A program made the translations under genes and the position numbers. Positions 286 to 36,729 of a stretch of 64,000 bases of DNA are shown here, piece after piece. Each line of letters opens with the position of its first letter. Positions within the stretch are counted from its first letter, which is position 1. Source of the stretch: Fibrobacter sp. UBA4297 (GTDB lineage Bacteria > Fibrobacterota > Fibrobacteria > Fibrobacterales > Fibrobacteraceae); assembly GCF_002394865.1 (NCBI RefSeq), contig NZ_DGUZ01000012.1, positions 94,021 through 158,020 of the forward strand, given 5' to 3'. Under the pieces are notes generated by a model that worked only from the letters and a program-made list of their open reading frames with translations, had not been told where the DNA came from and searched no databases.

Positions 286-327
286 ATCTCTAATGACTAC
301 TGACCAATAACCATTAACTAAAGACTA
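286..327 (-). repeat. Heptad-phased stop array beginning with the ppiD stop codon
   Basis: The minus strand reads TAGTCTT TAGTTAA TGGTTAT TGGTCAG TAGTCAT TAGAGAT. The first TAG (327-325) is the CDS stop. Confidence 0.7.
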
Positions 328-2256
328 GTCTCTATAGAAGAGATCGAGGTTGCTCTGTACCTGTGTAGATGCTTCGAGAGAAGACACATAGTCGTTGAAA
401 GCAGTCATCACACCAAAGCGGTAGGAGTTGTCTACATCCTGCTTGATGGCTTCTTCAACTTCTTCAACCTTCGGAGTCTTCTTGGAAACGACCTTGACCA
501 TCACGGCGCCGTTTTCAGCAACAACCGGAGCGGTCCATTCACCGACCTTAGCCTTCCCTACAACGCGTGCAATCTGAGCAGTGCCATAGCCAAAGCCAGG
601 AACAAAACCATCAACAGAAGCGTTCTTGGTTTCGAGTTCGACCTTTTCAATCTTGGTTGTGGTGTCAGCCGGATTCCAGGCCTTGACCTGAGCGGCAACA
701 GAATTCAAGTAGCTTTCAGCAGCCTTGGCAGCCTTCTGCTTGAGGAGAGTTTCCTTAATGTCATTGTAGTAAAGCGGGAGACTGCGTTCGCCAGCCTTGT
801 AATCACCCACCTTCTTGGCAATCACGACCCATTTGTTGTTTCTGAGCACGCCAGAAATTTCGCTTTCTTCCTTCGGGAGGTTTTCGTTCGGCCAAGCGAA
901 AGAAGCAAGACCCTTGAGGTAACCAAAGGCAGCCATATTGCCATCACGAGAAACCCATTCAGAAGTCTTGACTTCGAGACCGCGAGCCTGAGCTTCCGTG
1001 AGCAAGTCAGAACCGGCATCGACATCCTTCTTGATGTTGGTGAGAATCTTTTCGAGGCTATCAATCGTATTGGATGAAGCTGTAACAGTGAGGAGGATGT
1101 GGCCAACCTTGACCTTTTCGACTTCACCCTTGGCGTTCTTCACGTTACCGTAAGACTTGATGATGTGATAACCGAACTGAGAACGGACCGGTTCTGAAAT
1201 CTTGCCAGAGTCAAGAGCAAATGCAGCGTCTTCGAACGGCTTCACGTAAGTACCACGACCGACAAAGTCTTCGCTCAAGACACCGCCCTTTTCGGCACTA
1301 CCCGGATCTTCAGAAGAAACGCGAGCCATGTCTTCAAACGTCGTCGTAGAAGAGGAGTCGGTGAGCTGGTAGTAAAGCGTCATTGCATATTCGCGGATGC
1401 TAGCATCGTCACCTGCTGTAGCTTCAACCGGGAGAGATACGTACTGGAACTGAGCAACATCCTTCTGGACAAAGAAGCTGTCCATGTGGGCGTTGTAGTA
1501 ACCAGCAACCATAACGCTATCCACAGAATTGCTATCAGCAACAAATGCAGAACTCGGGGCGACCGCCACCTGCAGTTCGTAATCCGTCATGCGACGTTCA
1601 ACAGCCCACTTTGCTTCGAGAGAAGTCGGATGGACCGAAGCATTTACCAAAGTCTGGAGCTGACGAGCCGGAATGGTATTGTTCTTCATTTCGTCTTCGA
1701 GCATAAGCATGGAATTCCAGCGATAGGCAGCCGGAGTTTCAATCCATGCATCATAATCAGCCTTGTTGAACGTCGTGTCCGTGAGGAACTTCGGGAGAGT
1801 ACCGATGAAAGCCTGAGTGCGCTGAATCAAGTCTTCCTGAGAAGAAGCCTGCTGCTGGATGGCATAGAGGCGAGCCTGAGCTTCCTGGACCAGGCGAGCA
1901 CGAACGGCGTCAGAATTGCGCTTGAACTCGTTTTTGAGTTCGGCAACCGAGGCTCTCAGTTCGGCCTTTTCGAACTGTTCGCCAAAGAGAGCCTGACGAA
2001 CGAAGCTTGAGAACACCTGAGCACGGAGCTGAGAGTACTGTTCGTCATCCAAGTGCTGGTTCTGGTACTGATTCTGCACGATCATCTTCACACGAGAATC
2101 GAAGTCCGTGTAAGAAATCTTGGTATCGTTGACAACGCCGATAGGATAGCTACGTCCCTGGTCCGGAACACGGTCCATGGCGAGAAGACCGATAGCGATA
2201 CCGGCGGCAAAGATCACAATTACCCACTTGGCTTTTTCATTAATCCACGTTAACAT
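325..2256 (-). CDS. ppiD: PpiD-like periplasmic chaperone / parvulin-type peptidyl-prolyl isomerase
   Basis: N-terminal TM helix ([18 protein letters not shown]), parvulin motif FGYHIIK and about 640 aa. The start is set at MLTWINE (2256), which has a GGAG upstream. The ORF track extends to 2286. Confidence 0.7.
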
Positions 2257-2368: not shown

Positions 2369-2374
2369 CTATTT

Positions 2375-3994
2375 ATGGGATATAAAAATACAACAATTCC
2401 TTTGGAGTATCTCATGTACGATATTTTGGTTCTGGGTGCCGGCATTTCTGGATTGAGCGCAGCTCTCCACGCGGCAGAAAAAGGTTTCCACGTAGTTATC
2501 CTGACCAAAGGAGCAAAGCCGGACGGATCGTCCAACTACGCCCAGGGCGGAATCGCTACTGTTACCGAAAAGTCCGACAAGTTTGAATTCCACATTGCAG
2601 ACACGCTCGAAGCAGGCGCAGGCCTCTGCAAAAAGGAACCGGTCAACATCCTTACCAAGAGCGGTCCTTCGACCATCAAGCAGCTCGTAAAGTGGGGCGT
2701 CCAGTTCACACCGTCGCCCGAGGATAAATCGCAATTTGACCTCCACCTTGAAGGCGGGCACAGCCACCACCGCATTTTGCACGCCGCAGACCTCACCGGT
2801 AAAGAGATTATGCGTGCCCTCCTCTGCGAGCTTCACAAACAAAAGAACATCGACTACCTTGAAAACTGCTATATCAAGGACTTGATTTGCGAAGGCGATG
2901 GCAAGAACAAGCGTTGCGTCGGCGCAAAAATCATCCACCAGAAGACCGGCGAAGTCGAAAGCATCTACGCCAAGGCCACCATCCTTTCGACAGGTGGTGC
3001 AGGCCGCATTTGGCAGTACACCGTCTGCCCGCCCGACAGCTGTGGCGACGGCATGGCGATTGCCGCCCGCGCTGGCGCCGCCCTCCAGGATATCGAGTTC
3101 ATGCAGTTCCACCCGACTAGCTTGTACGCACCGAAGTTCAAGAAGCCGTTCCTCATTTCCGAAGCCGTACGTGGTTTCGGCGGCATCCTCAAGAACGACA
3201 AGGGCGAAGAATTCATGAACCAGGTGCACCCGCTGCACTCCCTCGCCCCGCGTGACATCGTCGCTCGCGCTATCCACAGCGAAATGCAGCGTCTCGGCAA
3301 GGACCACATGTTCATCGACCTTTCTGGCCGCACGCCAAAGGACATCAAGAGCCACTTCCCGCACATTTATTCTAAGTGCATGGATGCAGGCATCGACATC
3401 ACGAAGGAATGGATTCCGGTCGTTCCGGCAGCTCACTACATGTGCGGTGGCGTTCTCGTCGACACCTGGTCCCGTACCGAAATCAAGGGACTCTACGCTT
3501 GCGGCGAAGTTGCTGCAACGGGCGTCCATGGCGCAAACCGTCTCGCCTCTAACTCGCTTTTGGAAAGCGTTGTTTTTGCCATCCGCGCTGTCGATGATAT
3601 CGAAAAGAGCGGCATTACTAAGGATAAATTCACTGCACCTAAGTCCAAGAAAGAAACAGTCAGCTTCACAAAGGCTGCCTACTGGAAGAAGCGCAAGAAG
3701 ATGCTCCAAGACATGATGTGGACGCACTGCGGCATTGTCCGTACCGTCGCTGGCCTCAACCAAGGTCTCAAGGTCATCGAAGAACTCCAGAAGGATGTCG
3801 ATACCGCCATCAAGAACAAAGAAACAGAAAACTTGCACTACCTTGAATTCCTGAACGCCCTTCAGGTTTCCAAGATGATTCTCATTGCCGCCCTCCGTCG
3901 CAAGGAATCTCGCGGGCTCCACTACATCCTCGATTACCCGAATCAGGACCCGAAGACAAAGCACCAGAGCATTTACTTGAGCGACAAGAAATAA
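2375..3994 (+). CDS. nadB: L-aspartate oxidase
   Basis: FAD fold DILVLGAGISGLSAA, the HYMCGGV and RLASNSLLE motifs, and 539 aa. Confidence 0.85.
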   Translation: MGYKNTTIPLEYLMYDILVLGAGISGLSAALHAAEKGFHVVILTKGAKPDGSSNYAQGGIATVTEKSDKFEFHIADTLEAGAGLCKKEPVNILTKSGPSTIKQLVKWGVQFTPSPEDKSQFDLHLEGGHSHHRILHAADLTGKEIMRALLCELHKQKNIDYLENCYIKDLICEGDGKNKRCVGAKIIHQKTGEVESIYAKATILSTGGAGRIWQYTVCPPDSCGDGMAIAARAGAALQDIEFMQFHPTSLYAPKFKKPFLISEAVRGFGGILKNDKGEEFMNQVHPLHSLAPRDIVARAIHSEMQRLGKDHMFIDLSGRTPKDIKSHFPHIYSKCMDAGIDITKEWIPVVPAAHYMCGGVLVDTWSRTEIKGLYACGEVAATGVHGANRLASNSLLESVVFAIRAVDDIEKSGITKDKFTAPKSKKETVSFTKAAYWKKRKKMLQDMMWTHCGIVRTVAGLNQGLKVIEELQKDVDTAIKNKETENLHYLEFLNALQVSKMILIAALRRKESRGLHYILDYPNQDPKTKHQSIYLSDKK

Positions 3995-4016
3995 ATCTTT
4001 TTCTATATAGGGCAGC

Positions 4017-5066
4017 ATGGAAGAGGTCAAGGCAACACAGTCCAGGAAGAAAGTTAAAGATCAGCTTCCGTCTAAAATCGGCGGATACAAGCCAATACAA
4101 GCTCTCAACAGCGGAGCCATGGGTAGCCTGTGGCTTTGCAGGGACCCGTCTCTCGACAGGCTCGTCGTTGCCAAAAGACTCAATACAAACTTGAACCAGC
4201 AGGACATCTACATCAAGAGATTCCTGCAAGAAGGGAGCATCCTCGCCCACCTGAACCATCCAAGCATCATCCAGCCGTACGCCCTCTGGAAGGATAGCGA
4301 CGGCAACTACACGATGTCGATGGAATACGTACAAGGTTCAAGCCTCAAGGATTTACTGCTGAAAAACAAGCGACCGCCCGTCTGGGTTGTCGAGACCATT
4401 TTGTACGAGCTCTTGAGCGCACTTAGCCACGCCCACAGAAACGGCGTGACCCACCGCGACTTGAAACCAGCAAATATGATGATTGACAAGGACGGACGAG
4501 TACGCCTCCTCGACTTTGGCATTGCGCATACAGATACCCCGCTCGAAATCGGCAAGGAACTGACGCAAACTGGTTGCATCATCGGGACTGCCGCCTACAT
4601 GAGCCCAGAACAAATCATGGGTCAAAAAGTCAATTACGCAAGCGACCTCTTTAGCGTAGGCATCATCGCAAGCGAAATGCTTATTGGCGAAAACCTTTTC
4701 CGCGGCAAGGACTTCGAAGAGACTCGCGAAAACATCCTCAAGATGAAGTTCAAGCTCGAAGTATTCCCGAACGATGTTCCAAAGCCGCTCCGCAAGTTCG
4801 TGCTGAAACTTCTCAACAAACGAGCCAGCAAACGCCCCTCTTCGGCATGCGACGCCGCTAATGACCTCGCCAACATCATGAAGGAATACCCGCGCGACAT
4901 GACACCATACATTGCCGACTGGGCAGACACAGTAAACGAAGACCAACCCGTCGATTCAGTCATATCGCCCAAGCCACAAAAAACTACATTTAAGTATGGA
5001 ATAGGATTTATACTTGGAGTGATAGTAACTGCAATGGCGTTTCTCGCTATTCAGTTAGCGGTTTAA
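4017..5066 (+). CDS. Hanks-type Ser/Thr protein kinase with a C-terminal TM anchor
   Basis: HRDLKPANMM, DFGIA and YMSPEQ motifs, with a hydrophobic C-terminus. Confidence 0.85.
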   Translation: MEEVKATQSRKKVKDQLPSKIGGYKPIQALNSGAMGSLWLCRDPSLDRLVVAKRLNTNLNQQDIYIKRFLQEGSILAHLNHPSIIQPYALWKDSDGNYTMSMEYVQGSSLKDLLLKNKRPPVWVVETILYELLSALSHAHRNGVTHRDLKPANMMIDKDGRVRLLDFGIAHTDTPLEIGKELTQTGCIIGTAAYMSPEQIMGQKVNYASDLFSVGIIASEMLIGENLFRGKDFEETRENILKMKFKLEVFPNDVPKPLRKFVLKLLNKRASKRPSSACDAANDLANIMKEYPRDMTPYIADWADTVNEDQPVDSVISPKPQKTTFKYGIGFILGVIVTAMAFLAIQLAV

Positions 5067-11240: not shown

Positions 11241-12530
11241 TTACAGTCTCTTGAGGACTGCGGCGGCGTGGTGGATGAAGCCTTCTTCATTAGCCACGAC
11301 AGCAATTGCCTTTGCGTTCTTCTTGATAGCCTTTTCGGAGTACTTGATGATGCTCATGCGCTTGAGGAAGTCATAGACGCCGAGCGGGCTAAAGAAGCGA
11401 CCCGTGCCGTTCGTGGGGAGAACGTGGTTCGGGCCTGCAAAGTAGTCGCCCACCGGTTCAGAAGACCACGGGCCGATAAACACGGCACCCGCATTTTCAA
11501 TCTGGGCCGCCATGGATTCGGCTTCGTCCGTCATAATTTCCATGTGTTCCGGAGCAATGGCGTTAGCAATGGCCACACCGTCGAACCAATCCTTCACCAC
11601 GAGGATGCGACCGAAGTTATCGAGCACCTTCGTCAAAAGTTCCTTCTTCGGGGAATTTTCGACCTGGATGTCCACACATTCACTAATCATCTGTGCGGTT
11701 TCCATGTTGTCCGTAATGCAGATGGCGGCTTCAAAGCCAGAACCGTGTTCTGCCTGGCTCAAGAGGTCAGCAGCGACAAAGTCCGGATCGCAGGTATTGT
11801 CTGCAAGCACGAGCACTTCGGACGGGCCTGCCACCATGTCGATATCCACAATGCCAAAAACTTCCTTCTTCGCGACAGCGGCAAAAACGTTACCCGGGCC
11901 CACAATCTTGTCGACGCGTTCCACGACAACCTTGCCCTTGCCATCCTTGGCACCGTAAGCGAGCATACCGATAGCCTGAGCGCCACCGATATGGTAAACT
12001 TCGGTAATGCCGAGTTCGCAAAGCACAAAAGCGACCGCGCGGTTGATTTCGCCCTTGATCGGAGTCACGACAACGATGTCCTTGACACCTGCGACAATGG
12101 CCGGGACCGCATTCATGATGACCGTGCTCGGGTAAATGCCAGCACCACCAGGAACATAAAGGCCCACGCGTTTCATCGGGCGGATACGCTGACCGAGAAC
12201 CACGCCGTCCTTGCCTTCCATGAGCCAGGAATCTTCCATCTGGTTCACGTGGAAATCGCGGACGTTCTTGATAGCCTGCTTGAGCGCACGCTGCATTTCA
12301 GGCGGGCACTTGGCAGCAGACTTCTTGATTTCGGCTTCGGACACGCGGAGGTTCTTACCCTTGAGGCCATCGAACTTCTGAGCGTATTCCACAGCCTTGG
12401 CATAACCGCCGTTCTTGATGTCGGCGAGGATGTCCATGACCTTGTCGTGAATTTCCTTGCTCGGAGCTACTTCACGACCACAAATTCTGTCAATCTCTTG
12501 AGACTTCGGAGTGACTTTTACGATTTTCAT
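11241..12530 (-). CDS. hisD: Histidinol dehydrogenase
   Basis: 429 aa with typical HisD blocks (GPGNVFV, QAEHG, APEH). Confidence 0.85.
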   Translation of the reverse strand: MKIVKVTPKSQEIDRICGREVAPSKEIHDKVMDILADIKNGGYAKAVEYAQKFDGLKGKNLRVSEAEIKKSAAKCPPEMQRALKQAIKNVRDFHVNQMEDSWLMEGKDGVVLGQRIRPMKRVGLYVPGGAGIYPSTVIMNAVPAIVAGVKDIVVVTPIKGEINRAVAFVLCELGITEVYHIGGAQAIGMLAYGAKDGKGKVVVERVDKIVGPGNVFAAVAKKEVFGIVDIDMVAGPSEVLVLADNTCDPDFVAADLLSQAEHGSGFEAAICITDNMETAQMISECVDIQVENSPKKELLTKVLDNFGRILVVKDWFDGVAIANAIAPEHMEIMTDEAESMAAQIENAGAVFIGPWSSEPVGDYFAGPNHVLPTNGTGRFFSPLGVYDFLKRMSIIKYSEKAIKKNAKAIAVVANEEGFIHHAAAVLKRL

Positions 12531-12599
12531 TTTAACAGACCTTCTGTTTTTAAACTCTTAAACTCGACTTTTGTGCACTCTTACAAGATTTCACGCAAA

Positions 12600-14243
12600 C
12601 TAAGCGTTTTCGGCGAGCCCTTCGCTTGAGGCGGCCACATCCAAATGCTTGTATGCATTCGGGATAACGTTGTCTTCAAGCAAAATCTTGTATGTAAGGC
12701 CATCGACAAAAGCAGTCCAACAGGCCTCAATGATGTTGCTCGAAACGCCGACCATATTCCAGTAGCCGTGTTCATCGCCAAACGTCGTCCACACGCGAAC
12801 CGTTGCATCGGATGCCACATTGGAACCCAGCACGCGTACCTTGAAATCGTCCAGGCGCACACTTTCCATGCACGGGAAGAACGGCAAAAGCGCCTTGCGG
12901 AGAGCGGCATCGAGTGCGTTCACCGGGCCATCGCCCTCGCTCACCTGATGGCTAATCTTGTCGCCCACCTGGAGCTTGACCGTTGCCTGCGACACGGATA
13001 CACCCTGCGGAGTCTTGTCTTCAATGACGCGATAGTTCAAGACCTTGAACGGTTCCTTGACCATTCCCAAGTGGCGGTACACGAGCAACTTAAAACTCGC
13101 TTCGGCACTATCGAAATGCCAGCCCGCATTTTCGCGTTCCTTGATTTCCTTGAGGAGGCTTGCCACCACCGGATCCTTCTTGTCGATACCCGGCTTGATG
13201 GCCTTGAGCTTTTCGACAACGAGAGAACCACCGGCCTGGTCGCTTGTCACGAACACGCGGTCGTTGCCCACGGAATGCGGGTCGATATGTTCAAAACTGC
13301 GGCTGACCTTCATGACGCCATCGATGTGGGCACCCCCCTTATGGGCAAATGCGGCATCGCCCACGTACGGAGCATGCACGTCACTGGGCAAATTTACAAT
13401 CTGGTCGATATTGCTGCTCAACTGGCGCAAGTGCGAGAGCTTCTTTGCAGCGGTAAAATCGCAGTCCATCTTGAACTTCAAATCAGCAGCAATCGTCGTG
13501 AGGTTGGCGTTACCACAGCGTTCACCGTAACCATTCACCACGCCCTGCACCATGATACAGCCCGCCTTCACAGCGTAAATCGAGTTTGCCACGGCAAGTC
13601 CACTGTCGTTATGCACATGGATGCCCAGCGGCGTCGAAATACGCTTTTGCACTTCCGCAATAATCTGTTCAATCTCCCACGGCATCGTTCCGCCATTCGT
13701 ATCGCAAAGCACGATGCAATCGGCATGGCCAAGTTCGGCTGCCTTGAGCGTTTCGAGCGCATATTCCGGATTCGCCTTGTAGCCATCGAAAAAATGTTCC
13801 GCATCGTAAATCACCTCTTCGGAATGTTCCTTGAGGTATGCGACAGAAGACTCGATCATGTCGAGGTTTTCTTCGAGAGTCGTGCGGATAACGTCCGTCA
13901 CATGCAAATCCCAGCTCTTGCCGAAAATCGTCTTGACCGGAGCTTCGGACTTGATGAGCGCCTGCAAAAGCGGGTCGTTCTCGGGCAAAATACCCGGACG
14001 GCGCGTGCTGCCAAACGCAGCAATCTTTGCATGCTTGAGCTTTACGTCCTTGATGAGCTTGAAAAATTCCTCATCGGTCGGATTGCTGGGGTTCGGCCAA
14101 CCGCCTTCAATATAGTCAAATCCAAAGTGGTCCAAAATTCGAGCGATCTGGACTTTATCAGCTAAGGAGAGACTTATTTTACGGTCTTGGTTACCGTCAC
14201 GGAGCGTTGTATCGTATAAAAGGACTTTTTTAGAAGAATTCAT
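12600..14243 (-). CDS. cimA: Citramalate synthase / 2-isopropylmalate synthase family (LeuA-related)
   Basis: LYDTTLRDGNQ HMGL-like barrel start, 547 aa and a C-terminal LeuA-dimerisation-like region. Confidence 0.6.
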   Translation of the reverse strand: MNSSKKVLLYDTTLRDGNQDRKISLSLADKVQIARILDHFGFDYIEGGWPNPSNPTDEEFFKLIKDVKLKHAKIAAFGSTRRPGILPENDPLLQALIKSEAPVKTIFGKSWDLHVTDVIRTTLEENLDMIESSVAYLKEHSEEVIYDAEHFFDGYKANPEYALETLKAAELGHADCIVLCDTNGGTMPWEIEQIIAEVQKRISTPLGIHVHNDSGLAVANSIYAVKAGCIMVQGVVNGYGERCGNANLTTIAADLKFKMDCDFTAAKKLSHLRQLSSNIDQIVNLPSDVHAPYVGDAAFAHKGGAHIDGVMKVSRSFEHIDPHSVGNDRVFVTSDQAGGSLVVEKLKAIKPGIDKKDPVVASLLKEIKERENAGWHFDSAEASFKLLVYRHLGMVKEPFKVLNYRVIEDKTPQGVSVSQATVKLQVGDKISHQVSEGDGPVNALDAALRKALLPFFPCMESVRLDDFKVRVLGSNVASDATVRVWTTFGDEHGYWNMVGVSSNIIEACWTAFVDGLTYKILLEDNVIPNAYKHLDVAASSEGLAENA

Positions 14244-14245: not shown

Positions 14246-14302
14246 TTGTAAAGATAGAAAAAAAGAGTAGACAGTAGGAAGTAGACGGTAGGAAGTTGTT
14301 AG
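14246..14302 (-). promoter_or_regulatory. About 55-nt promoter cassette: box TATCTTTA (14249-14256) plus upstream heptad array (14268-14295)
   Basis: Near-identical to 17826-17881 upstream of slyD. Confidence 0.5.
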
Positions 14303-17194: not shown

Positions 17195-17779
17195 TTATTC
17201 CTTATGGTGTTCGGCGTGGTGTTCGCAACCGCAGCCGCCCTTGCCATCGCAATTTTCCTTATGGCCGTGACCGCCACATTCGCATTCGTGGTCTTCACCA
17301 TCGTGACCACCGCAGCAGCAATGGTGTTCAAACGGCTTGAGGTCATCTTCAGTAGCTTCGCGAACAGAGACAACTTCAATAGCAAAGTTGAGGTTCTTGC
17401 CAGCAAGTTCGTGGTTAGCGTCGATAATAGCCGTCTTTTCACCAACAGACTTGATGCGGATCGGCATCGGACCACCCGGAGTCTGGGCATAGAAAGCCAT
17501 GCCTGCTTCGACCTTGTCGACTCCCTGGAACACGTTCAGCGGAACTTCCTGAGTCATGCGTTCGTCGTATTCGCCGTAGCCTTCTGCCGGAATGACGACA
17601 ACGTCAAACTTGTCGCCCACATCGTGACCGACCATAGCCTTTTCGAGACCCGGAACGATCATGCGCATGCCCTGGATGTACTGGAGCGGTTCGCGACCTT
17701 CGGAGGAATCGATTACAGCACCTTCATCGGACTTCAGGGTGTAGTGCATCTGGACAACTGTTTTTTCTGCAATTTTCAT
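17195..17779 (-). CDS. slyD: SlyD-type FKBP peptidyl-prolyl isomerase with a Cys/His-rich metal-binding tail
   Basis: FKBP plus IF-domain layout. The tail reads HHCCCGGHDGEDHECECGGHGHKENCDGKGGCGCEHHAEHH. Confidence 0.8.
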   Translation of the reverse strand: MKIAEKTVVQMHYTLKSDEGAVIDSSEGREPLQYIQGMRMIVPGLEKAMVGHDVGDKFDVVVIPAEGYGEYDERMTQEVPLNVFQGVDKVEAGMAFYAQTPGGPMPIRIKSVGEKTAIIDANHELAGKNLNFAIEVVSVREATEDDLKPFEHHCCCGGHDGEDHECECGGHGHKENCDGKGGCGCEHHAEHHKE

Positions 17780-17825
17780 AAATATCCTTTAGAATCGCGA
17801 GCGAACCCGCGGTTGAATCTTGAAG

Positions 17826-17881
17826 CCCAAATGTAGAAAAAATAGTAGACAGTAGGAAGTAGACTGTAGGAAGTGGTTAGA
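17826..17881 (-). promoter_or_regulatory. Promoter cassette: box TACATTTG (17828-17835) plus heptad array (17846-17873)
   Basis: Homologous to 14246-14302. Confidence 0.5.
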
Positions 17882-17912
17882 CGAGAGATCGCTTCTCCTC
17901 AAAGAGGATAAC

Positions 17913-17941
17913 TCAACTAAGGCAACAAGTTGCCAAGTTTC
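17913..17941 (+). repeat. 29-nt repeat TCAACTAAGGCAACAAGTTGCCAAGTTTC
   Basis: Identical copy at 44810-44838. It contains the hairpin GGCAAC-aa-GTTGCC. Confidence 0.8.
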
Positions 17942-18023
17942 GTATAGCTGGTAGACGAGAGACGAAAGAGTAATAATCGTGGCTTCGCTACCATATGTTG
18001 ATAAAAAAATGCTTTTTTCACAA

Positions 18024-18069
18024 CCTCTCGTCTTTCGTCTGTAGGACCTTTGGTCCGTTCTTTCGTCTA
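18024..18069 (-). repeat. TAGACGAAAG hairpin module (copy 1)
   Basis: The minus strand reads TAGACGAAAGAACGGACCAAAGGTCCTACAGACGAAAGACGAGAGG. Its first TAG is the nadE stop codon. Confidence 0.8.
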
Positions 18070-19542
18070 ACAAGAAACCTGGCTCTCGCGGTATTCACCG
18101 CCAAAGGCATGCCCACTCACGGAAAGAATCGGCGGGAACTGGATGCGCTTTGCCAAGGCAAGTCCCTTGAACCTACGGTACCAGAAGCGCATGTCTTCGA
18201 GCACAGCTTCGGTCGTTGGCAAATGAGCCTTAAAATAGGCGGCATCCACACCGAGCGTTTCGCAAATCAAGCCTTGCGCTGCAAGCTTTTCGGTAAATTC
18301 AAGACTCACGCCCTTCTCGACCCACATCGCAAAGAGTTTGTCATGGTACGGGTAAAGAATCGGGTCACCCTTGCCTTCATCGACATTCATTGCATCACTG
18401 AGTTCTGCGCTCGCCGGGATGTCAATAGACGCCTTCGGGATGATTTCAGAATCGCGATTGATGTAACGGGCTAGCGCATAGACCTGAGTTTTCCACAAGT
18501 CGCCAAGAGCGCACATCACACCGCAAGTATCGCCGTACAGCGTGCAGTAACCGACCATGGCCTCGCTCTTGTTGCCATTGCAAGTCACGCCGGCCCCCAC
18601 CACAGATGCAACCGTCGAAAGAATCGAAGCAGAGCGCGTCCTCGCCTGCAAGTTCTCGTGATTGATACCTGCAACCTTCATCACCGTATCGTTACGCACA
18701 AAAGAGCAACGTTCCAGCGTATGGCAAACAGATTCAATGATGTCCGAAATCGGGGCGACCATGTACGGCGTTCCAAGGTTCTCGGCCAAGTCACGTGCCG
18801 CATTCTTCGTCGTATCGGAATTGAAGCGCGTGGGCATGTTCACGAGGTAAACATTCTGCGGTCCAATCGCTTCGGCATAAAGAGCGGCAGAAACGGCGCT
18901 ATCGATACCGCCACTTGCCCCAATGACCATGCGCGAGATATGGAACATCTTCAAGTTCTCGCGAATCATGAACACGAGCGCATCGTGAATCTCGGCAATT
19001 TCACTTGTGTAAGGCTTTGAGGATTCCGCATAGACCTGCACCTGGCCATCGACAAATTCAATAACTGCCTCCGCTTCGCTAAAGAGCGGCATTTCAAAAA
19101 CGATTTTGCCATCGCAGTCAAACACGCGGCTACCGCCCGAAAGCGCATAAATATTCTTTCCGGTATTGTCAGTCCCGACGCCATTGAGGCAAACGACAGG
19201 CATGGCACAATCCTGAGCCAAGTGCGAAAGTTCCTTGTTTTCGACTTCGCGACGACCGACCACATAAAAGTCACTGCCATGAGTCACATGCGCCACATTC
19301 AAAAGCGGCGTATCGTCAAGCACGTCCCCGCACAAGAAGAACGGCATGTTGCCCGCATACTTGCGGATCTCGGCCCAGTCTACGGGGAGCGCCCTGTTGC
19401 TTGGCCCAGTAAGTGCATATCGTGGAAACACAACGCAATCTACTTCGGCAGCCTTAGCACGGTCAAAAGCGGCCTTCATCGTTTGCATATTTGCCTGCAC
19501 ATTGCCCGGCAAAATTTTCATCTGTACCACATAAAGTTTCAT
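18067..19542 (-). CDS. nadE: NAD+ synthetase with a short, apparently degenerate N-terminal CN-hydrolase-like domain
   Basis: PP-loop GASGGIDSAV and 491 aa from MKLYVVQ. VVFPRYALTG occurs where glutaminase-active enzymes have PE. Confidence 0.7.
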   Translation of the reverse strand: MKLYVVQMKILPGNVQANMQTMKAAFDRAKAAEVDCVVFPRYALTGPSNRALPVDWAEIRKYAGNMPFFLCGDVLDDTPLLNVAHVTHGSDFYVVGRREVENKELSHLAQDCAMPVVCLNGVGTDNTGKNIYALSGGSRVFDCDGKIVFEMPLFSEAEAVIEFVDGQVQVYAESSKPYTSEIAEIHDALVFMIRENLKMFHISRMVIGASGGIDSAVSAALYAEAIGPQNVYLVNMPTRFNSDTTKNAARDLAENLGTPYMVAPISDIIESVCHTLERCSFVRNDTVMKVAGINHENLQARTRSASILSTVASVVGAGVTCNGNKSEAMVGYCTLYGDTCGVMCALGDLWKTQVYALARYINRDSEIIPKASIDIPASAELSDAMNVDEGKGDPILYPYHDKLFAMWVEKGVSLEFTEKLAAQGLICETLGVDAAYFKAHLPTTEAVLEDMRFWYRRFKGLALAKRIQFPPILSVSGHAFGGEYRESQVSC

Positions 19543-19565
19543 TTCAATATCCTCTGCGCTAGAAA

Positions 19566-19596
19566 ATAAAAAAATGCACCGCCCATGAGCGATGCC
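19566..19596 (-). terminator. Terminator of the 19697-21058 lipoprotein gene
   Basis: GCATCGC/GCGGTGC stem followed by a T-run on the minus strand. Confidence 0.5.
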
Positions 19597-19664
19597 TTTT
19601 TTCAAACGCATTATAAAATGCAAGTTGGCAGAACTTAGTTAGCAGAGCTTAGAGAGACGAGCAA

Positions 19665-19699
19665 TGTTCTAAGTTCTAAGTTCTAAGTTCTAACTACTA
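19665..19699 (-). repeat. Heptad stop array beginning with the CDS stop
   Basis: The minus strand reads TAGTAGT TAGAACT TAGAACT TAGAACT TAGAACA. Confidence 0.8.
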
Positions 19700-21058
19700 C
19701 TCGTACTGCGGAGCTTCGAAAGAGGTCGGGATCTTAGGCGTATCCGGATCATGATGGACGAACGAGAAACCGCTAATCTTGTTGGTATTGCGATCAGTCG
19801 GTCCTGCCTGGAGCTGTCCATGGATGCTCGTTGTGCACTTATCCGGATGCAAGCACCCCTTATTGCGCATCATCAAGTGGTAGCCATAGATTTCCCAGAC
19901 GCCTTCTTTGGATTCAACATTTTTTGTACCATCGAAACCTGAGATTTCATAAGTACCATCGGCCTTGAGTGTAAATTTCCAATCGATATTATCTTTTTTA
20001 GCCTGCCATTCACCGACAAAATCGCTAGCCTTTTCGTATTCATATTCGCTAGCTTCAACATCGCAGCTCATCGTCGTTTTCGTTTCGCCATTAGAAGACG
20101 AGATTTTGTTGTCAGTTCCGACAGAATAGGTGTACATTGAATAAACTGGCTTGTTATAGTATGCCGGGCGCATCAAGAGCGTGCTACGCTGGATGTCATA
20201 ATGACCGCCAATCCAGTAGGCAACCTTTCCGTCAGCCGCATTTTCGACGATATACGAATTATCGAAGAACGTAAATGTTCTCGTCGTATCACCATCGGTG
20301 CATTCGAAAATTTTGTTCTGAATGTCGGCAGCCTTGGAAACTTTGCCCTTCGTCACGGCGACGCTAGTCTTCACCGCTTCGCTATATTCCTTCGAGCCAT
20401 TGACCGCATACTTGACGACGTTATCCTTGTCGACGATGAACGAAAGCGTGAAACCGTCCTTGGCCTTGAGCTGTTCCAGAATCTTTTTAACACCATCCGT
20501 TTCTGCATACTGCTTGCCGACATTGCCATCGACGAATTTCACTTCGCCATTTGCAAAATCCGTATAAGTCACAAGCCACATTTCATCTAGAATGCGGAGA
20601 GCGATAAGGCCCTGCTTACTGCCGGTCGACAGGTAAACTGTCTGGTCAAAAATCTTGAGTTCATAGTTCTTTTCGAGGTCTGCAAGCTTTGCAGCGCGAG
20701 CGCCTTTCGGCGCGTCCGCAGAAGACGAAGAATTCGGAGTTTCAGCACTTGAAGAAGACTTCGCCTCATCCTTAGCGGAAGAAGAGGAGTTCGATTCAGA
20801 CTTGGAATCGGAAGACTTATTATCCTTGGAGTCCGAAGACTTCTTGTCGTCATCTTTTGAATCCGACGACTTCTTATCTTCTGTTTTGGAAGATGAAGAC
20901 TTCACTTCGCATTCATCGGAATCGCAATCATCTTCTTCGGAAGAAGATGATACTTCTTCTTGGTTATTCTTTGGAGAAGAAGGGCTATCGTCATCTCCGC
21001 AAGCAGCGAAGAGGAAAGCCGAGGAAACTAAAAGAGCAAGTAACTTTTTCTTATTCAT
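19697..21058 (-). CDS. Secreted lipoprotein with a Ser/Asp/Lys-rich linker, function unknown
   Basis: Lipobox LLVSSAFLFAAC and a low-complexity SSDSKDD repeat linker. Confidence 0.6.
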   Translation of the reverse strand: MNKKKLLALLVSSAFLFAACGDDDSPSSPKNNQEEVSSSSEEDDCDSDECEVKSSSSKTEDKKSSDSKDDDKKSSDSKDNKSSDSKSESNSSSSAKDEAKSSSSAETPNSSSSADAPKGARAAKLADLEKNYELKIFDQTVYLSTGSKQGLIALRILDEMWLVTYTDFANGEVKFVDGNVGKQYAETDGVKKILEQLKAKDGFTLSFIVDKDNVVKYAVNGSKEYSEAVKTSVAVTKGKVSKAADIQNKIFECTDGDTTRTFTFFDNSYIVENAADGKVAYWIGGHYDIQRSTLLMRPAYYNKPVYSMYTYSVGTDNKISSSNGETKTTMSCDVEASEYEYEKASDFVGEWQAKKDNIDWKFTLKADGTYEISGFDGTKNVESKEGVWEIYGYHLMMRNKGCLHPDKCTTSIHGQLQAGPTDRNTNKISGFSFVHHDPDTPKIPTSFEAPQYE

Positions 21059-21240
21059 GTTATGCAATATAAATTATTTAGTCCAATTTAGACCAAGAAA
21101 AGTTTACAAATCACACAAAAAAGCTGTAAAACAGCCTTGTCCATTCCAAGAATGTATTATATGGATGTTTTTAAGTAGGCAGAACTTAGAGAGAAGAGCA
21201 ATGTTCTAAGTGAGATTATCGCTTCGCTCTAATCTCAACT

Positions 21241-21298
21241 GCTAGGCTCAGAAATAGGCTTGCAAGCAATCCTGCTTCACTCGCCTTACGCAGTTGTC
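21241..21298 (-). repeat. 58-nt conserved 3'-UTR-type element (copy 1)
   Basis: 55 of 58 nt are identical to 35903-35960. It contains the palindrome GCTTGCAAGC. Confidence 0.8.
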
Positions 21299-23644: not shown

Positions 23645-24089
23645 GATCTAAAAAACCAATCCAAAGTATAAAAGAGCAAGCAAAAAATAAGAAAGGAAAT
23701 CCGAACCACAAGCACCCCAACTTTTTTTTTTTCGAAATCCCTATTTTTCGCTCAAAAATGGCAAAAAATTTTTAGAAACATTTTTTATCACACTTTTTCC
23801 AGTTTACACCACCCTTACGAACGTATGTGTAACAAAATTATCACTTACTATTAGCACAAGTTATCAACAGGTATTTTTTCAAACATCCCTTGACAAGATT
23901 TTCCTTACTTTAAGCATACAAATTCTTATACAAATGGCGAAATTCGCTCAAAAACGCCACTTTTTAGCATTATAAAAAATGTAACTTGGTGAAAATCAAC
24001 AAGTTACATGCGGTGATTAGTTATTGATTTTTGGTTATTAGTCAATAGTCATTAGTCAGTAGTTTTTTTTGCTAATGACCTATTTAATT
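23645..24089. other. AT-rich dnaA upstream region; candidate dnaA control region or oriC
   Basis: 445 nt that is AT-rich by eye, with a T11 tract. DnaA-box-like 9-mers are TTATCACAC (23785), TTATCACTT (23838) and TTATCAACA (23861). There is no perfect TTATCCACA. Confidence 0.3.
24018..24066 (+). repeat. Longest heptad stop array (7 units)
   Basis: Reads TAGTTAT TGATTTT TGGTTAT TAGTCAA TAGTCAT TAGTCAG TAGTTTT. Confidence 0.8.
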
Positions 24090-27690: not shown

Positions 27691-27716
27691 AAACTAGTTG
27701 AATGGGAGATATCATT

Positions 27717-29732
27717 ATGAACAAGAAAATCTTAGCACTGGGCTATACATCCTGCATTTCACTAGCAATACTTACAAGTTGCTCGGATTCTACGTCACCT
27801 TCTGGCGCTTTTTACAATCCAGACAGTGAAATCAATTCCAGCAATTCTGAATTCGCAGAAGAAATACAGTCAAGCAATTCCGAACTCACGCAAACCCCGG
27901 ATATTCCTGAAGGCGCGGGCATTTCAGAATCACCAACAAGCAGCACAACAGCTTCACAGCCGACTCCGGCCTCAAGCAATTCCGACACAAGCTCTGCCCC
28001 AAGTTCCGCAAGCAATCCGGCAAATAGCGTCGAAACCAGCTCGTCAAGCAGCGCCATTGCAACAAATCCAGGCACAGAACCCGCACAAGCCAACGAAAAT
28101 ACGGGAGGTCGCCCCGTCATCACTTACGCAGCAAGTGGCGCCACAGCCACAAATGCCGGAAACTGCATCACCGTTACAGGTGGTAGCGTCACCATCAAAT
28201 GCGGTGGCGAATACGACTTTAGCGGTTCTTACAGCGGTAGCGACGCCCAAATTCTCGTGAACACCGCCAAGACGGACAGTTCCGTTTACTTGAACATGAA
28301 AGGACTCACGCTTACAAACACGGCAGACGCCCCAATTTACATTCAGAAAACAAGCAAGGCTTTTGTCGTCGCGAAGAACGGCACGACCAACACATTCACA
28401 GACGCATCTACAAGAACAAAGACTTACAACTACACCAACGACTCCGGTGAAGCCAAGACTGATACGACGGGCGCATGCATTTACGCGAAGGACGACCTCA
28501 CCATCAAAGGCGAAGGTACGCTTATCGTCAAGGCAAATTACAACAACGGTATCCATACCAGCAATGACTTGAAGGTGAAAAACGGCCTCATCACCGTGAA
28601 CGCAAAGAACAATGGTCTCAAGGGCAAAGGCTCCGTCGAAATCAGCGGCGGCACCATCAACATCACCACAGCCGAAGGCGACGGCATCAAGAGCGATACC
28701 GAGGACGCTGCAGATTTGGCAAACGGCAAGGGTTCCATCGAAATCACGGGCGGCACCATCACCGTGACATCCGCATTTGACGGCATCACAGCAGCAAACG
28801 CAGTCATCGTCGCCAATGGAGAATCCACAGCACCGGCAATCAAGATTACATCTGGCGGCGGACAATCCTGCCTCAGCTTGAACACCAGCACGACCGGCGG
28901 ACGCGGCGGAATGGGCGGTTTTGGCGGGATGGGCGGCAGTTCCTGCTCCACCACCGAAAGCATGAAGGGCATCAAGGGCGATTCAAGCATCACTATTAGC
29001 GGTGGCGTTATCGACATCAACAGCCGTGACGACGGTCTCCACAGTAGCGGAACTATCACACTCAGTGGTGGAACAACGACAATCGCCACAGACGACGACG
29101 GCGTCCACGCCGACAAATCTCTCTACGTCAAGGACAATGCGAACGTGAGCGTGACCATCGCTTATGAAGGCATGGAATCTCCGGACATGAATTTCGAAGG
29201 CGGCATCACAAGCGTCATCACCACGGACGACGGCTGGAATGCAGCCGGCGGCACAAGCACGACCTCCACAGGCAACACAGGTCGCGGCGGCTGGGGCGGA
29301 GCAGGCGGAGGCATGGGCGGTAGCACCGGGAATCTCAAGGTCTCTGGCGGTTACCACTACGTTTACGTGGGCACAGGCGACACGGACGGCATCGACAGCA
29401 ATGGCGGCATCAGCATCACCGGAGGCGTCATCATCGTGGAATGCCGCATGAACGGTGGTATGGGCGGCATGGTCGATTCGGACGGAACGACATCGATTAC
29501 AGGCGGCAAGTTGCTCGGATTCGGCACAAACAACTCCGAAGAAGGCACGCAGTACAGTGTCAGTTTCACGACAGACAACTACTACGGCACAGCGGATATC
29601 GCATTCAAGCCGAGTTTCTCCGGAAGCCGCATGGTTTCTAACGTAGGAAAGCCGAGTGTCGTGAATAGCATAAGCGGCATGACCAAGACTTGCTTCGGGA
29701 ACAGCACCGACCGCTGCGTTTATACAAATTAG
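27717..29732 (+). CDS. Surface lipoprotein, beta-helix carbohydrate-binding (Cthe_2159-like) family
   Basis: Lipobox ILTSC, a Ser/Pro linker, repeated ITGGTITV...DGI(K/H) units and Gly-rich inserts (GGRGGMGGFGGMGG). Confidence 0.5.
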   Translation: MNKKILALGYTSCISLAILTSCSDSTSPSGAFYNPDSEINSSNSEFAEEIQSSNSELTQTPDIPEGAGISESPTSSTTASQPTPASSNSDTSSAPSSASNPANSVETSSSSSAIATNPGTEPAQANENTGGRPVITYAASGATATNAGNCITVTGGSVTIKCGGEYDFSGSYSGSDAQILVNTAKTDSSVYLNMKGLTLTNTADAPIYIQKTSKAFVVAKNGTTNTFTDASTRTKTYNYTNDSGEAKTDTTGACIYAKDDLTIKGEGTLIVKANYNNGIHTSNDLKVKNGLITVNAKNNGLKGKGSVEISGGTINITTAEGDGIKSDTEDAADLANGKGSIEITGGTITVTSAFDGITAANAVIVANGESTAPAIKITSGGGQSCLSLNTSTTGGRGGMGGFGGMGGSSCSTTESMKGIKGDSSITISGGVIDINSRDDGLHSSGTITLSGGTTTIATDDDGVHADKSLYVKDNANVSVTIAYEGMESPDMNFEGGITSVITTDDGWNAAGGTSTTSTGNTGRGGWGGAGGGMGGSTGNLKVSGGYHYVYVGTGDTDGIDSNGGISITGGVIIVECRMNGGMGGMVDSDGTTSITGGKLLGFGTNNSEEGTQYSVSFTTDNYYGTADIAFKPSFSGSRMVSNVGKPSVVNSISGMTKTCFGNSTDRCVYTN

Positions 29733-29764
29733 AACTTAGTTGGTAGAGCTTAGAACTTAGTTGA
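29730..29764 (+). repeat. Heptad stop array beginning with the CDS stop
   Basis: Reads TAGAACT TAGTTGG TAGAGCT TAGAACT TAGTTGA. Confidence 0.85.
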
Positions 29765-29767
29765 AAG

Positions 29768-29799
29768 TAAAAAGACGAGCTATAATGCTCGCCTTTTTC
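29768..29799. terminator. Bidirectional terminator between convergent genes
   Basis: Reads AAAAAGACGAGC-tataat-GCTCGCCTTTTT. Confidence 0.65.
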
Positions 29800-29822: not shown

Positions 29823-29865
29823 CCTCTCTCGTCTTTCGTCTACCAGCGAAGCGATCTTTCGTCTA
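29823..29865 (-). repeat. TAGACGAAAG-family module (variant) after pilT
   Basis: The minus strand reads TAGACGAAAGATCGCTTCGCTGGTAGACGAAAGACGAGAGAGG. Confidence 0.65.
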
Positions 29866-29867: not shown

Positions 29868-30968
29868 CTACATCCAGCCGCGATCAGATGTACCAGAAAT
29901 ACCACGAATCTTAAGGTCAAAGTCATCGCGGTTCGTCGCTGCATTCATTGCCGTTTCCAGCGAAATCTGCTCGTTCTGGTAAAGTTCGAGGAGCGCCTGA
30001 TCGAACGTCTGGCTATGGTATTGAAGGTGGCCTTCGGCAACAGCTTGTTCCACCATGTCAATCTTGTTCTTATCCTGGATGTATTCCTTGATAGCGCCCG
30101 TATTCACGAGAATTTCGGCAGCCGGGACTCGCCCCTTGCCATCCTTCGTCGGCAAAAGACGGAGCGAAATAATGCCAGCCAAAACTTCGGCAAGCAAAAG
30201 ACGCACTTCATCATGCTGGTGCGGCGGATACATCGAAAGCACACGGTGAATCGTTTCCACAGCATTCGTCGTATGGATAGTCGCAAAGACCATGTGGCCA
30301 GTATCTGCTGCGGTAAGCGCAATCTGCATCGTTTCAAGGTCACGAATTTCGCCCACGAGGAGCACATCCGGATCCTGACGGAGCGCAGCACGGAGTGCAT
30401 TCGCATACGAAAGCGTATCCACGCCGATTTCACGCTGCGAGATAATCGCCACGTTATCACGATAAAGGTATTCAATCGGGTCTTCGACCGTAATGACGTT
30501 CACAGATTCTTTCTGATTGATGTAGTCAATCATCGAAGCAAGCGTTGTGGACTTACCAGAACCCGTCGTACCCGTCACAAGCACAAGACCGCGCTTAGTC
30601 AAAGCCAAGTCACGAATCACTTCGGGCAAGTGCAAATCTTCGAAAGCAGGAATCACAGCCTTGATATGACGAATCACAACCGCAATTGTTCCACGCTGAC
30701 GGAAAACGTTCACACGGAAACGGCCCATATCACGAGCGCCCACGGCAAAGTCGCATTCCTTATTAGCCTCAAAACGCTGCTTCTGGTCGCGATTCATGAT
30801 ATCATCCAAGAAGGAATCCATCATAGCGCTATCGATGCGCACATCAAAAAGTCTTTGCAAAGCACCATTGATACGATAAACCGGCGGAACACCAACTCGC
30901 AGATGCAAGTCAGACGCCTTGCGGTTTACCATTTCACGCAAGAGCTGTTCAATGCGAAGTTCAGCCAT
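29868..30968 (-). CDS. pilT: Type IV pilus retraction ATPase PilT
   Basis: Walker A GTTGSGKST and the GHMVFATIHT block. The start lies 2 nt after the upstream stop. Confidence 0.85.
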   Translation of the reverse strand: MAELRIEQLLREMVNRKASDLHLRVGVPPVYRINGALQRLFDVRIDSAMMDSFLDDIMNRDQKQRFEANKECDFAVGARDMGRFRVNVFRQRGTIAVVIRHIKAVIPAFEDLHLPEVIRDLALTKRGLVLVTGTTGSGKSTTLASMIDYINQKESVNVITVEDPIEYLYRDNVAIISQREIGVDTLSYANALRAALRQDPDVLLVGEIRDLETMQIALTAADTGHMVFATIHTTNAVETIHRVLSMYPPHQHDEVRLLLAEVLAGIISLRLLPTKDGKGRVPAAEILVNTGAIKEYIQDKNKIDMVEQAVAEGHLQYHSQTFDQALLELYQNEQISLETAMNAATNRDDFDLKIRGISGTSDRGWM

Positions 30969-35708: not shown

Positions 35709-35710
35709 AT

Positions 35711-35756
35711 TAGACGAAAGAACGGCGCTTTGCGCCTACAGACGAAAGACGAGAGG
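35711..35756 (+). repeat. TAGACGAAAG hairpin module (copy 2, opposite orientation)
   Basis: Reads TAGACGAAAGAACGGCGCTTTGCGCCTACAGACGAAAGACGAGAGG. The flanks are identical to copy 1 and the stem is changed compensatorily. Confidence 0.8.
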
Positions 35757-35825
35757 AAAAAATACAATGGGGCTGTTCACAGACACATTGTTGAGCCAAG
35801 AATTTTTGACTCATAAAACTTATAT

Positions 35826-35833
35826 CAAATCTA
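35826..35833 (-). promoter_or_regulatory. -7-type box TAGATTTG
   Basis: Exact TAnnTTTG about 118 nt upstream of ATG 35708. Confidence 0.3.
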
Positions 35834-36711: not shown

Positions 36712-36729
36712 TAAATACCTCTCTAAACA

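Follow-up and report, generated by a model that had tools for sequence, protein, structure and literature searches.

A 46-nt hairpin module in Fibrobacter and the mosaic family of intergenic repeats to which it belongs

Introduction

A 64,000-nt stretch of the genome of Fibrobacter sp. UBA4297 (contig NZ_DGUZ01000012.1, positions 94,021 to 158,020), called the window below, contains several copies of a 46-nt unit with a short hairpin in its centre. Two of the copies have identical flanks of 15 nt and 22 nt. Of their 9 central bases, 7 are different, and each copy retains a 5-bp stem (GGACC/GGTCC in copy 1 and GGCGC/GCGCC in copy 2). The initial annotation read this difference as a compensatory swap of base pairs and as the signature of a selected RNA or DNA structure. 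The question that this locus raises is whether the unit is a structured RNA, a regulatory element of the genes that it adjoins, or a repeat that spreads as DNA. We found that the constraint on the hairpin is real and that the unit is not a discrete RNA gene. It is a module of a genus-wide Fibrobacter family of mosaic, palindrome-containing intergenic repeats. With a probability of roughly 0.55, this family is of a kind with repetitive extragenic palindromes (REP), bacterial interspersed mosaic elements (BIME) and miniature inverted-repeat transposable elements (MITE), and its hairpin is structurally required.

Copies of the module in the window

The sequences and coordinates first given for copies 1 to 3, the variant module after pilT and a related unit at 17878 (TCCTC-AAA-GAGGA) were all exact in the window (Table 1), and the identity of the flanks of copies 1 and 2, with the stem pairing kept, was correct base by base. 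Copy 1 consists of TAG, ACGAAAGAAC, the hairpin GGACC-AAA-GGTCC and TACAGACGAAAGACGAGAGG. Copy 2 is antisense to a GT2 gene and lies 2 nt upstream of its ATG. The centre of the pilT variant is ATCGCTTCGCTGGT, and its core is a GCTTCGC mini-hairpin. This variant lies between the pilT stop codon and a canonical two-way terminator. The stop is a TAG at 29868-29870, followed by TT and then TAGACGAAAG, and the module starts 2 nt past it. A covariance model (R1) was trained on copies from other genomes and then scored on the window copies (Table 1).

AGACGARAG occurred 15 times in the window against 1.0 expected, a number reached in 0 of 100 shuffles, and TAGACGAAAGAACGG with at most two mismatches occurred four times against 0.16 expected. 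These counts, together with the pairing test across copies described below, ruled out a chance repeat. Single hairpins were weak (-7.2 to -8.5 kcal/mol as RNA, z-scores of -0.6 to -1.6), and the RNA and DNA folding energies indicated that both strands fold equally well. Therefore, the structural evidence is the comparison among copies and not the folding energy.

No Rfam 15 family matched the module. The only match in the window at the gathering score was a tRNA, and the best matches below the threshold were chance hits to eukaryotic families. Our literature searches found no account of this repeat, nor studies of Fibrobacter promoters, terminators or intergenic repeats. Among the papers searched, the AGACGA repeat string was matched only in two unrelated ones, neither of them on bacterial repeats.

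Pairing of the hairpin across genomes

We scanned public genomes, one per species, with a pattern that fixed the flanks only (TAGACGAAAGA, a gap of 8-30 nt and AGACGARAG). The scan gave at least 120 loci, numbered L001-L120, a set that is biased towards pattern-bearing sites. Nearly all of the loci listed were from Fibrobacter, and a few were from Alistipes, Rikenellaceae and other Bacteroidota. There were two classes. The first comprised plain tandem heptads, i.e. TAGACGA followed by AAGACGA, GAGACGA or TAGACGA units. The second was the hairpin module, with TAGACGAAAGAAC, a centre and then TA(C/T)AGACGARAG. Carriage by phages was rejected, as the module matched only one viral contig, at the contig end.

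An end-anchored stem of at least 4 bp was found in 56 of the 72 distinct modules, compared with 3.8% of shuffled centres. The stems were 4, 5, 6 or 9 bp long and represented about 20 sequences, all of which started with G and ended with C. In 16 of the 72 modules, direct repeats (GCTCGC..GCTCGC or GCTTCGC..GCTTCGC) replaced the simple hairpin. Among 35 copies of equal length, which had 13 different 5-bp stems, 98.3% of the cells paired, against 68.2% in shuffled copies and 31-51% when the 3′ partner columns were slid. Cells changed on both sides numbered 45 versus 13, and the covariation score was 0.685 versus 0.119. The copies used in this test are paralogues drawn from numerous genomes, with stem types that are shared between different species. 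Stems varying without complementarity, which had been proposed as evidence against a selected structure, did not occur among these flank-selected copies. The module has near-invariant heptad flanks (TAGACGA and A/G-AGACGA) and a slot usually filled by a G+C hairpin of 4-6 bp with a 3-nt loop.

The claim of a selected structure was thus borne out in one respect, as pairing is kept far beyond chance. In the other respect it was not: the unit is a dispersed heptad-repeat module instead of a stand-alone structured RNA locus. A compensatory swap between copies 1 and 2 was likewise not supported. Seven changes in nine central positions and none in 37 flank positions are unlike stepwise compensatory mutation. 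The restriction of change to the centre, the recurrence of stem types across species and the exchange of a whole centre at an orthologous junction (see below) point to subfamilies or cassette replacement. A simple inversion of the central palindrome was also rejected as the origin of copy 2 from copy 1: the reverse complement of ACCAAAGGT is ACCTTTGGT, not CGCTTTGCG.

The loops were strongly asymmetric. On the purine-rich strand, their sequence was TTC, TTT, TAC or TGC; the other strand accordingly has GAA, AAA, GTA or GCA with a closing C-G pair. Other 5-bp hairpins of Fibrobacter spacers had the same asymmetry. A UUCG-type tetraloop register was considered for the C-TTC-G centres and rejected, as the stem would break. 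C-GNA-G and GCGAAGC are very stable DNA mini-hairpins. The loop type is a hint, not a proof, that the hairpin has a role as single-stranded DNA. Imperfect stems were too few for G-T versus A-C mismatches to serve as a clue to the folding strand.

It could be supposed that the hairpins are true REP elements, i.e. GTAG-tagged single-stranded DNA hairpins moved by a RAYT or IS200-type Y1 (HUH) enzyme, for which the heptad arrays are the preferred target. On the complementary strand, 25 of 35 copies had GTAG before the hairpin, 8 had ATAG and 2 had another sequence; the stem begins with the last G of this tag. Most triloops are of the GNA type with a closing C-G pair, and a GCGAAGC core is found repeatedly. 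The copies are also extragenic, multi-copy and head-to-head, matching REP features (PMC3733652). However, REP families share one stem sequence, which is not the case here, the hairpins are shorter than typical REPs and REPs do not have heptad flanks. The surroundings of the copies showed no RAYT-like gene, and Fibrobacter is not named in PMC3733652, PMC6006769 or PMC12306157. We regard this explanation as improbable.

Turnover between strains and species

The repeats behave as unstable copy-and-replace DNA. Genes for an identical 366-aa PilT protein were followed by three different spacers. In the 72-nt spacer, there was no array and the stop was followed directly by the terminator (array-free alleles L129, L132, L133 and L135). 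The 118-nt spacer had a TAGACAG/TAGGCGG array, and the 135-nt spacer had the TAGACGA module of the window. In three assemblies, scaffold gaps lay exactly at the array position after the pilT stop. Runs of N at the place where a heptad array follows the pilT stop (L127, L131, L134 at ~2603-2702, and L128) suggest that the arrays break assemblies or vary within populations.

Similarly, an identical GT2 protein was accompanied either by a 289-nt composite element or by a spacer of 47 nt, in which CTTCCTA heptads abut the same downstream ATG. A clean target duplication of TA could not be reconstructed from this junction, as the alternative allele is not empty and carries another heptad array. In addition, TAGACGA itself contributes the TA seen at both ends, which therefore does not prove target duplication. 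In the leuA spacer, the flanks of locus L005 and of the window were nearly identical and the array was swapped, L005 having TAGACGA-AAGACGA x4 plus other units. Between L012 (5860-6160) and L101 (4600-4900, reverse), the spacer was ~99-100% identical, and the flanking pilT and Cthe_2159 genes ~85%. This shared spacer contains a tandem duplication of a unit of ~96 nt.

At one orthologous junction, a module had its whole centre exchanged for a different one. In a conserved exbB/exbD/tonB-like operon, the junctions that contained elements varied with the species. At the first junction of the operon, the stop of the upstream gene and the start of the downstream gene overlap (TGATG, TAATG or ATGA). 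In three species, the downstream frame at this junction, read from the old start codon, had no stop anywhere in the element, and a fourth species (L086) had in-frame AATTCGG heptads there (Table 1). The open frames add long charged extensions before the signal peptide. In L112 and L114, a repeat of the GTCATCCTGAG...GAAGGATC type lies within the open frame.

Polarity and position at gene boundaries

Genes for the statistics were called with a crude codon model of our own, which was checked against Pfam and public calls in the window, and 57 arrays that overlapped called ORFs (open reading frames) were excluded. Of 343 gene-end boundaries, 60 were faced by the TAG end of an AGACGA array, as were 26 of the 343 gene-start boundaries; the opposite polarity was seen at 3 and 7. 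Array pairs within 400 nt were convergent in 50 cases (42 of them at most 100 nt apart) and divergent in two. Arrays and modules line the outer edges of intergenic regions and turn their TAG end to the neighbouring gene. They often form inverted pairs, and the core between these may contain the true terminator or a promoter. Most by far of the copies whose position could be compared with called genes were extragenic.

Hairpin modules followed a same-strand gene end in 52 of 82 cases and adjoined a gene start in 12. The plain arrays had the reverse preference (34 versus 50, favouring gene-start sides). It had been noted that the adjoining gene ends in the leading TAG in copies 1 and 3. Pfam and independent gene calls confirmed this for the NAD synthase gene at copy 1 and the GT2 glycosyltransferase gene at copy 3. 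The counts also show that copies often provide stop codons: 27 of the 82 hairpin modules do so themselves, and another 19 begin no more than 10 nt past a stop.

Such positions invite a view close to that of the initial annotation, that the module is a cis-acting RNA element of 3′ untranslated regions (UTRs). The purine-rich, U-free heptads and the hairpin behind the terminating ribosome would be bound by a protein or protect the end, and the copies would be kept by selection. The bias to the sense strand (52 versus 12), the 46 of 82 modules that lie within 10 nt of a stop and the conserved pairing agree with this view. An array or module also stands at the same junction in several species despite the difference in sequence, and modules lie upstream of true terminators, hence within transcripts. 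However, the same module is found inverted before start codons, as in copy 2, and plain arrays favour gene-start sides. Copies also come and go between strains with identical flanking proteins, and some are inside reading frames. There is no Rfam match, and no sequence is conserved beyond the flanks. We therefore consider a 3′-UTR element unlikely, though still worth keeping in view.

The module is not the intrinsic terminator of its own gene, as the sense strand lacks a U-run and separate canonical terminators lie downstream at several loci, including pilT. On the pyrimidine-rich strand, it does share with intrinsic (Rho-independent) terminators a G+C stem followed by a T-rich stretch; it differs from them in its very short stem and interrupted T-run. 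Modules and arrays could be barriers to transcripts that leave the intergenic region, either antisense into the end of a gene or as read-through towards the next promoter. The pyrimidine-rich strand, with the hairpin and then GUUCUUUCGUCUA or the C-rich, G-poor arrays, would stop them as a weak intrinsic terminator or through Rho. A simple terminator scan flagged all three window hairpins on this strand. The polarity is symmetric about the intergenic region in all flavours (86 versus 10; 39 versus 3 for non-AGACGA arrays), purines make up on average 67% of the strand that reads into the intergenic region, and the loops on the pyrimidine-rich strand are mostly GNA. On the other side, the stems have only 4-6 bp (-7 to -8.5 kcal/mol), the T-run is interrupted, and the background of the scan was high (39 found versus 24 expected). 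Plain arrays have no hairpin, copy 2 would halt the transcript of its own gene 10 nt before the ATG, and the role of Rho is pure inference. Outward barriers are, in our opinion, quite unlikely.

Two repeats of the GTCATTGCGAGC.../GTCATCCTGAGCGAAGCGAAGGATCC type were also seen in the window (Table 1), and this type often follows modules in other loci.

Heptad arrays and 7-nt periodicity

Sequence identity within Fibrobacter spacers peaked at lags of 7, 14 and 21 nt, and the peaks persisted after the AGACGA arrays had been masked. We counted 225 arrays, in which AGACGAA, AGACGAG and AGACGAT were the commonest units. Other flavours included TAGGAAG, TAGACAG, TAGTGGT, TAGTTAC, TAGGGTT and AACTTAG. 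In these non-AGACGA flavours, the TAG-rich strand, on average 67% purine, read from the gene into the spacer in 39 cases against 3. No general purine skew at spacer edges was found once arrays were excluded.

Gene-start-side arrays ended a few bases from a TAnnTTTn box in 16 of 62 cases, compared with a background of 6% and 0 of 86 at gene ends. We take this box to resemble the Bacteroidetes-type -7 promoter element (TAnnTTTG). T-runs with CTACATTTG or CTATCTTTAC boxes lie directly outside gene-start-side arrays at three sites in the window (Table 1). One of them, with the promoter-like TTTTTTCTACATTTG of an FKBP isomerase gene, adjoins the array at 17843-17873. The array at 29733-29767 directly follows the stop of the Cthe_2159-domain gene and forms the other arm of the pilT spacer; other strains have other heptads at this position. 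The array at 19669-19699 starts, on the minus strand, with the TAG stop of an ORF.

Metagenome-assembled genomes of Alistipes and Rikenellaceae, which belong to another phylum, had AGACGAA/AGACGAG arrays without the hairpin (L009, L018, L020, L030, L036, L051, L078 and L079). These arrays sometimes precede AATGCAG heptads, and in L018 a TAG closes an ORF of 333 codons.

The arrays might be binding sites for a factor with a 7-nt period, such as a ribbon-helix-helix protein coating double-stranded DNA, a single-strand binder of the cold-shock or S1 type, or a HutP-like reader of UAG-N4, and would then mark boundaries or form parts of promoters. This fits the periodicity that survives masking, the TAG or NAG that many flavours share at 7-nt spacing with fixed polarity, and the promoter-like boxes abutting 16 of 62 gene-start-side arrays. 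The same AGACGAR heptads are present in Alistipes and Rikenellaceae, and S1, Csp and CsrA have been weighed as candidates for a different heptamer repeat (PMC4679880). However, to recognise so many unrelated flavours would take either a range of specificities or a reader of very low stringency, we identified no candidate protein, and the hairpin slot and the rapid gain and loss are left unexplained. Binding arrays seem very doubtful to us as the explanation.

Heptamers are known from other bacteria: MacGregor described TAACTGA repeats in Beggiatoaceae, Cyanobacteria and a few Bacteroidetes (PMC4679880). Like these and the STRR repeats of Cyanobacteria, the Fibrobacter arrays are tandem 7-nt direct repeats in intergenic regions near gene boundaries, with stop codons on one strand and a patchy phylogenetic distribution. 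The unit is different, however. In Beggiatoaceae, the stop-rich strand mostly points to a downstream start codon; at either end of a Fibrobacter spacer, the TAG-rich strand is directed away from the gene next to it. The account of the TAACTGA repeats describes neither hairpin slots nor a multitude of flavours side by side (PMC4679880).

Composite elements

Copies of the module also form parts of larger palindromic elements (Table 1). The outer arm of composite 1 is TTAGACGAGAG with the hairpin TCCTC-AAA-GAGGA. The hairpin GGCAAC-AAG-TTGCC, the inner arm TAGACGAGAGACGAAAGAG and the hairpin GTGGC-TTC-GCTAC follow, and the element ends with copy 1, inverted. A copy with 76% identity lies between unrelated convergent genes in L073, where the hairpin of the outer arm has a compensated change from TCCTC/GAGGA to TCCAC/GTGGA. 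Composite 2 occupies the whole 289-nt spacer between two GT2 genes. In it, copies 3 and 2 are inverted arms (inverted repeat I2, 79% complementary over 43 nt) around a core that holds a 63-nt repeat. This architecture, including the 63-nt repeat, recurs between unrelated genes in L106.

The 63-nt repeat is 94% identical between its two window sites and contains the palindrome GCTTGCAAGC. Its outer stem has a compensated change (CAACTGC/GCAGTTG versus CAAATGC/GCATTTG), and it precedes different heptad flavours at the two sites. A 38-nt repeat, 95% identical, surrounds GGCAAC-AAG-TTGCC. At 44806 it has no AGACGA arrays, and the sub-modules are therefore dispersed independently.

Genes and reading frames around the copies

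The left neighbour of the copy 1 spacer is the FKBP isomerase gene. The slightly longer plus-strand ORF opposite this gene, which ends in the TAG of a heptad array, did not match Pfam. It is a shadow ORF, and therefore the 287-nt spacer of copy 1 separates two co-oriented genes. More full-length shadow ORF pairs were present in the window (Table 1). Shadow ORFs opposite real genes make the longest ORF an unsafe gene call in this genome. In addition, spacers adjoining a glycosyltransferase-rich region contain homopolymer tracts that are possibly slippage-prone.

Table 1. Features of the window and, where a locus is named, of other loci
Feature	Position	Strand	Description
Copy 1	18024-18069	minus	hairpin at 18044-18056; covariance model 58.7 bits
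Copy 2	35711-35756	plus	hairpin GGCGC-TTT-GCGCC at 35724-35736; covariance model 65.1 bits
Copy 3	35959-36000	minus	hairpin GGACC-TAC-GGTCC at 35975-35987, then TTTAGACGAGAGACGA; covariance model 57.8 bits
pilT variant module	29823-29865	minus	covariance model 27.4 bits; orthologues in L012, L101
Two-way terminator after pilT	29769-29798		canonical
Composite palindromic element 1	17877-18069	none	long hairpin, -66 kcal/mol, z = -5.7; TCCTC hairpin 17896-17908, GGCAAC hairpin 17921-17934, inner arm 17952-17970, GTGGC hairpin 17979-17991
Composite element 2	35709-36000	none	-106 kcal/mol, z = -7.5
63-nt repeat	21236-21298, 35898-35960		also L106 ~985-1047
38-nt repeat	17909-17946, 44806-44843		also L073 ~4745-4785
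Heptad array	17843-17873	plus	TAG TAGACAG TAGGAAG TAGACTG TAGGAAG; direct repeat D8
Heptad array	14268-14295	plus	TAGACAG TAGGAAG TAGACGG TAGGAAG; upstream of leuA-like gene
Heptad array	29733-29767	plus	AACTTAG TTGGTAG AGCTTAG AACTTAG TTGAAAG
Heptad array	19669-19699	plus	CTAAGTT x3, CTAACTA CTA
Further heptad arrays	24038-24063, 290-324		non-AGACGA flavours
Boxes outside gene-start-side arrays	17828-17842, 43525-43539, 14248-14264	minus	17828-17842 belongs to the FKBP gene
GTCATTGCGAGC.../GTCATCCTGAGCGAAGCGAAGGATCC-type repeats	51805-51831, 51844-51869		
Open-frame junction elements	L006 ~1570-1740, L112 ~1438-1650, L114 ~945-1090, L086 ~1227-1275		exbB/exbD/tonB-like operon
NAD synthase gene	18067-19623	minus	stop codon = TAG of copy 1
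GT2 glycosyltransferase gene	35998-36732	minus	stop codon = TAG of copy 3
GT2 gene	34062-35708	minus	downstream of copy 2
FKBP isomerase gene	17195-17779	minus	
Shadow ORF opposite FKBP	17204-17836	plus	
Cthe_2159-domain gene	27702-29732	plus	
ORF at array 19669-19699	19697-21067	minus	
Shadow ORF pair	2369-4030 / 2375-3994	minus / plus	
Shadow ORF pair	11241-12530 / 11268-12629	minus / plus	
Shadow ORF pair	41685-42932 / 41718-43013	minus / plus	
Shadow ORF pair	46893-47969 / 46920-47972	plus / minus	
Shadow ORF pair	50492-51799 / 50513-51775	minus / plus	
Homopolymer tract C11	50471-50481		
Homopolymer tract G10	63669-63678		

Discussion

We prefer to class the family with REP/BIME and MITE repeats because of its modular dispersal, its inverted arms, the presence, absence and replacement of elements, the sequence identity that does not track that of the flanking genes and the in-frame copies. 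For repeats of this kind, the invariant heptad flanks, the free but paired centre and the polarity common to many flavours are unusual.

If the family is of this kind, it would spread and be reshuffled at the DNA level, by non-autonomous transposition or by recombination or gene conversion between arrays. Spread or maintenance would need a hairpin and not a particular stem sequence. The role as stop codon would be largely a by-product, because the element starts with TA-G and abuts gene ends; on landing at a gene end, it would close the frame. A module that starts at the stop codon would set a stable stem 13 nt past the first base of the codon, and inverted arms may pair into long stems in read-through RNA. 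By analogy to REP/BIME, ERIC and Correia repeats, such stems could be exonuclease barriers, RNase III-type processing sites or insulators of transcription units. The predicted folds of the composites and the lax matches of the terminator scan are compatible with RNA processing, stabilisation or insulation.

Several observations weigh against this classification. In ~0.9 Mb of flanks, which falls short of whole genomes, there was no recurrent transposase-like ORF. We recovered no clean empty site bearing a target duplication, and the junctions of the array-free pilT alleles show no clear duplication. Partner arms are often of different types, a plain array facing a hairpin module, and therefore are not classical terminal inverted repeats. 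The gene calls behind the position statistics were crude. The sense-strand bias after stops (52 versus 12) is what a selected 3′-UTR element would show. Different arrays at the same position across strains and species could equally reflect selection for any TAG-N4 heptad.

The polarity shared by the flavours and the persistence of some array at the same junction keep a functional reading alive, be it a 3′-UTR element, an outward terminator or Rho site, or the target of a heptad reader. In its broadest form, tandem TAG-N4 heptads in many interchangeable flavours would be a polar punctuation of gene boundaries in Fibrobacter and, with the AGACGAR unit, in some Alistipes and Rikenellaceae. They would be written or read by a factor with a 7-nt period, either an enzyme that generates the arrays or an RNA- or DNA-binding protein that reads the heptads, and the hairpin slot would be a defined site where small palindromes with GNA loops are inserted or assembled. 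We hold this to be a speculative idea of low, though not negligible, probability. If it were true, the 46-nt module would be the visible tip of a genome-wide system, beyond a selfish repeat.

Comparison with known repeats gives likenesses and differences for the mosaic repeat family that we prefer. Like the REP, BIME and REPIN of Proteobacteria, it consists of short, multi-copy, G+C-rich extragenic palindromes (72 distinct modules here), with a sequence by the stem that may correspond to the GTAG tag and head-to-head pairs in mosaics with other short motifs. They are likewise found after genes and inside operons, where the classical effect of REP is to protect the upstream mRNA. Unlike them, the Fibrobacter module has a hairpin of 11-21 nt within tandem heptads, ~20 stems and invariant flanks, and its partner arms often differ in type. 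No cognate RAYT was found in the ~0.9 Mb of DNA that flanks the copies.

MITE-type repeats (Correia/NEMIS of Neisseria, ERIC, BOX and RUP) are similar to the composites of 100-300 bp in their inverted arms, flanking TA, abutment on genes, presence or absence between strains and long hairpin folds, and the modular build recalls BOX. In contrast, the arms here are arrays of 7-nt units instead of unique inverted repeats and need not match, and we found no demonstrable target duplication or parent insertion sequence. Rickettsia palindromic elements are small palindromes that are also tolerated inside reading frames, as seen here at one operon junction in three species. They differ in that most Fibrobacter copies are extragenic, and they share no sequence similarity and belong to a different lineage.

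Fibrobacter is a main degrader of fibre in the rumen. The family would be a new one among the bacterial repeats of small palindromic and mosaic type, and we found none reported from this phylum. Its combination of invariant heptad flanks, a hairpin that is free in sequence and always paired, and strict polarity at gene boundaries is unusual. The repeats supply stop codons, lie close to promoters and in regions coding for signal peptides, and differ between strains with identical proteins; therefore, effects on operon expression are likely. Gene annotation (through false ORF extensions and shadow ORFs), assembly gaps in metagenomes and strain typing are likely to be affected too. The 7-nt periodicity in many flavours bears on an old question, the role of heptamer repeats in Cyanobacteria, Beggiatoaceae and Bacteroidetes.

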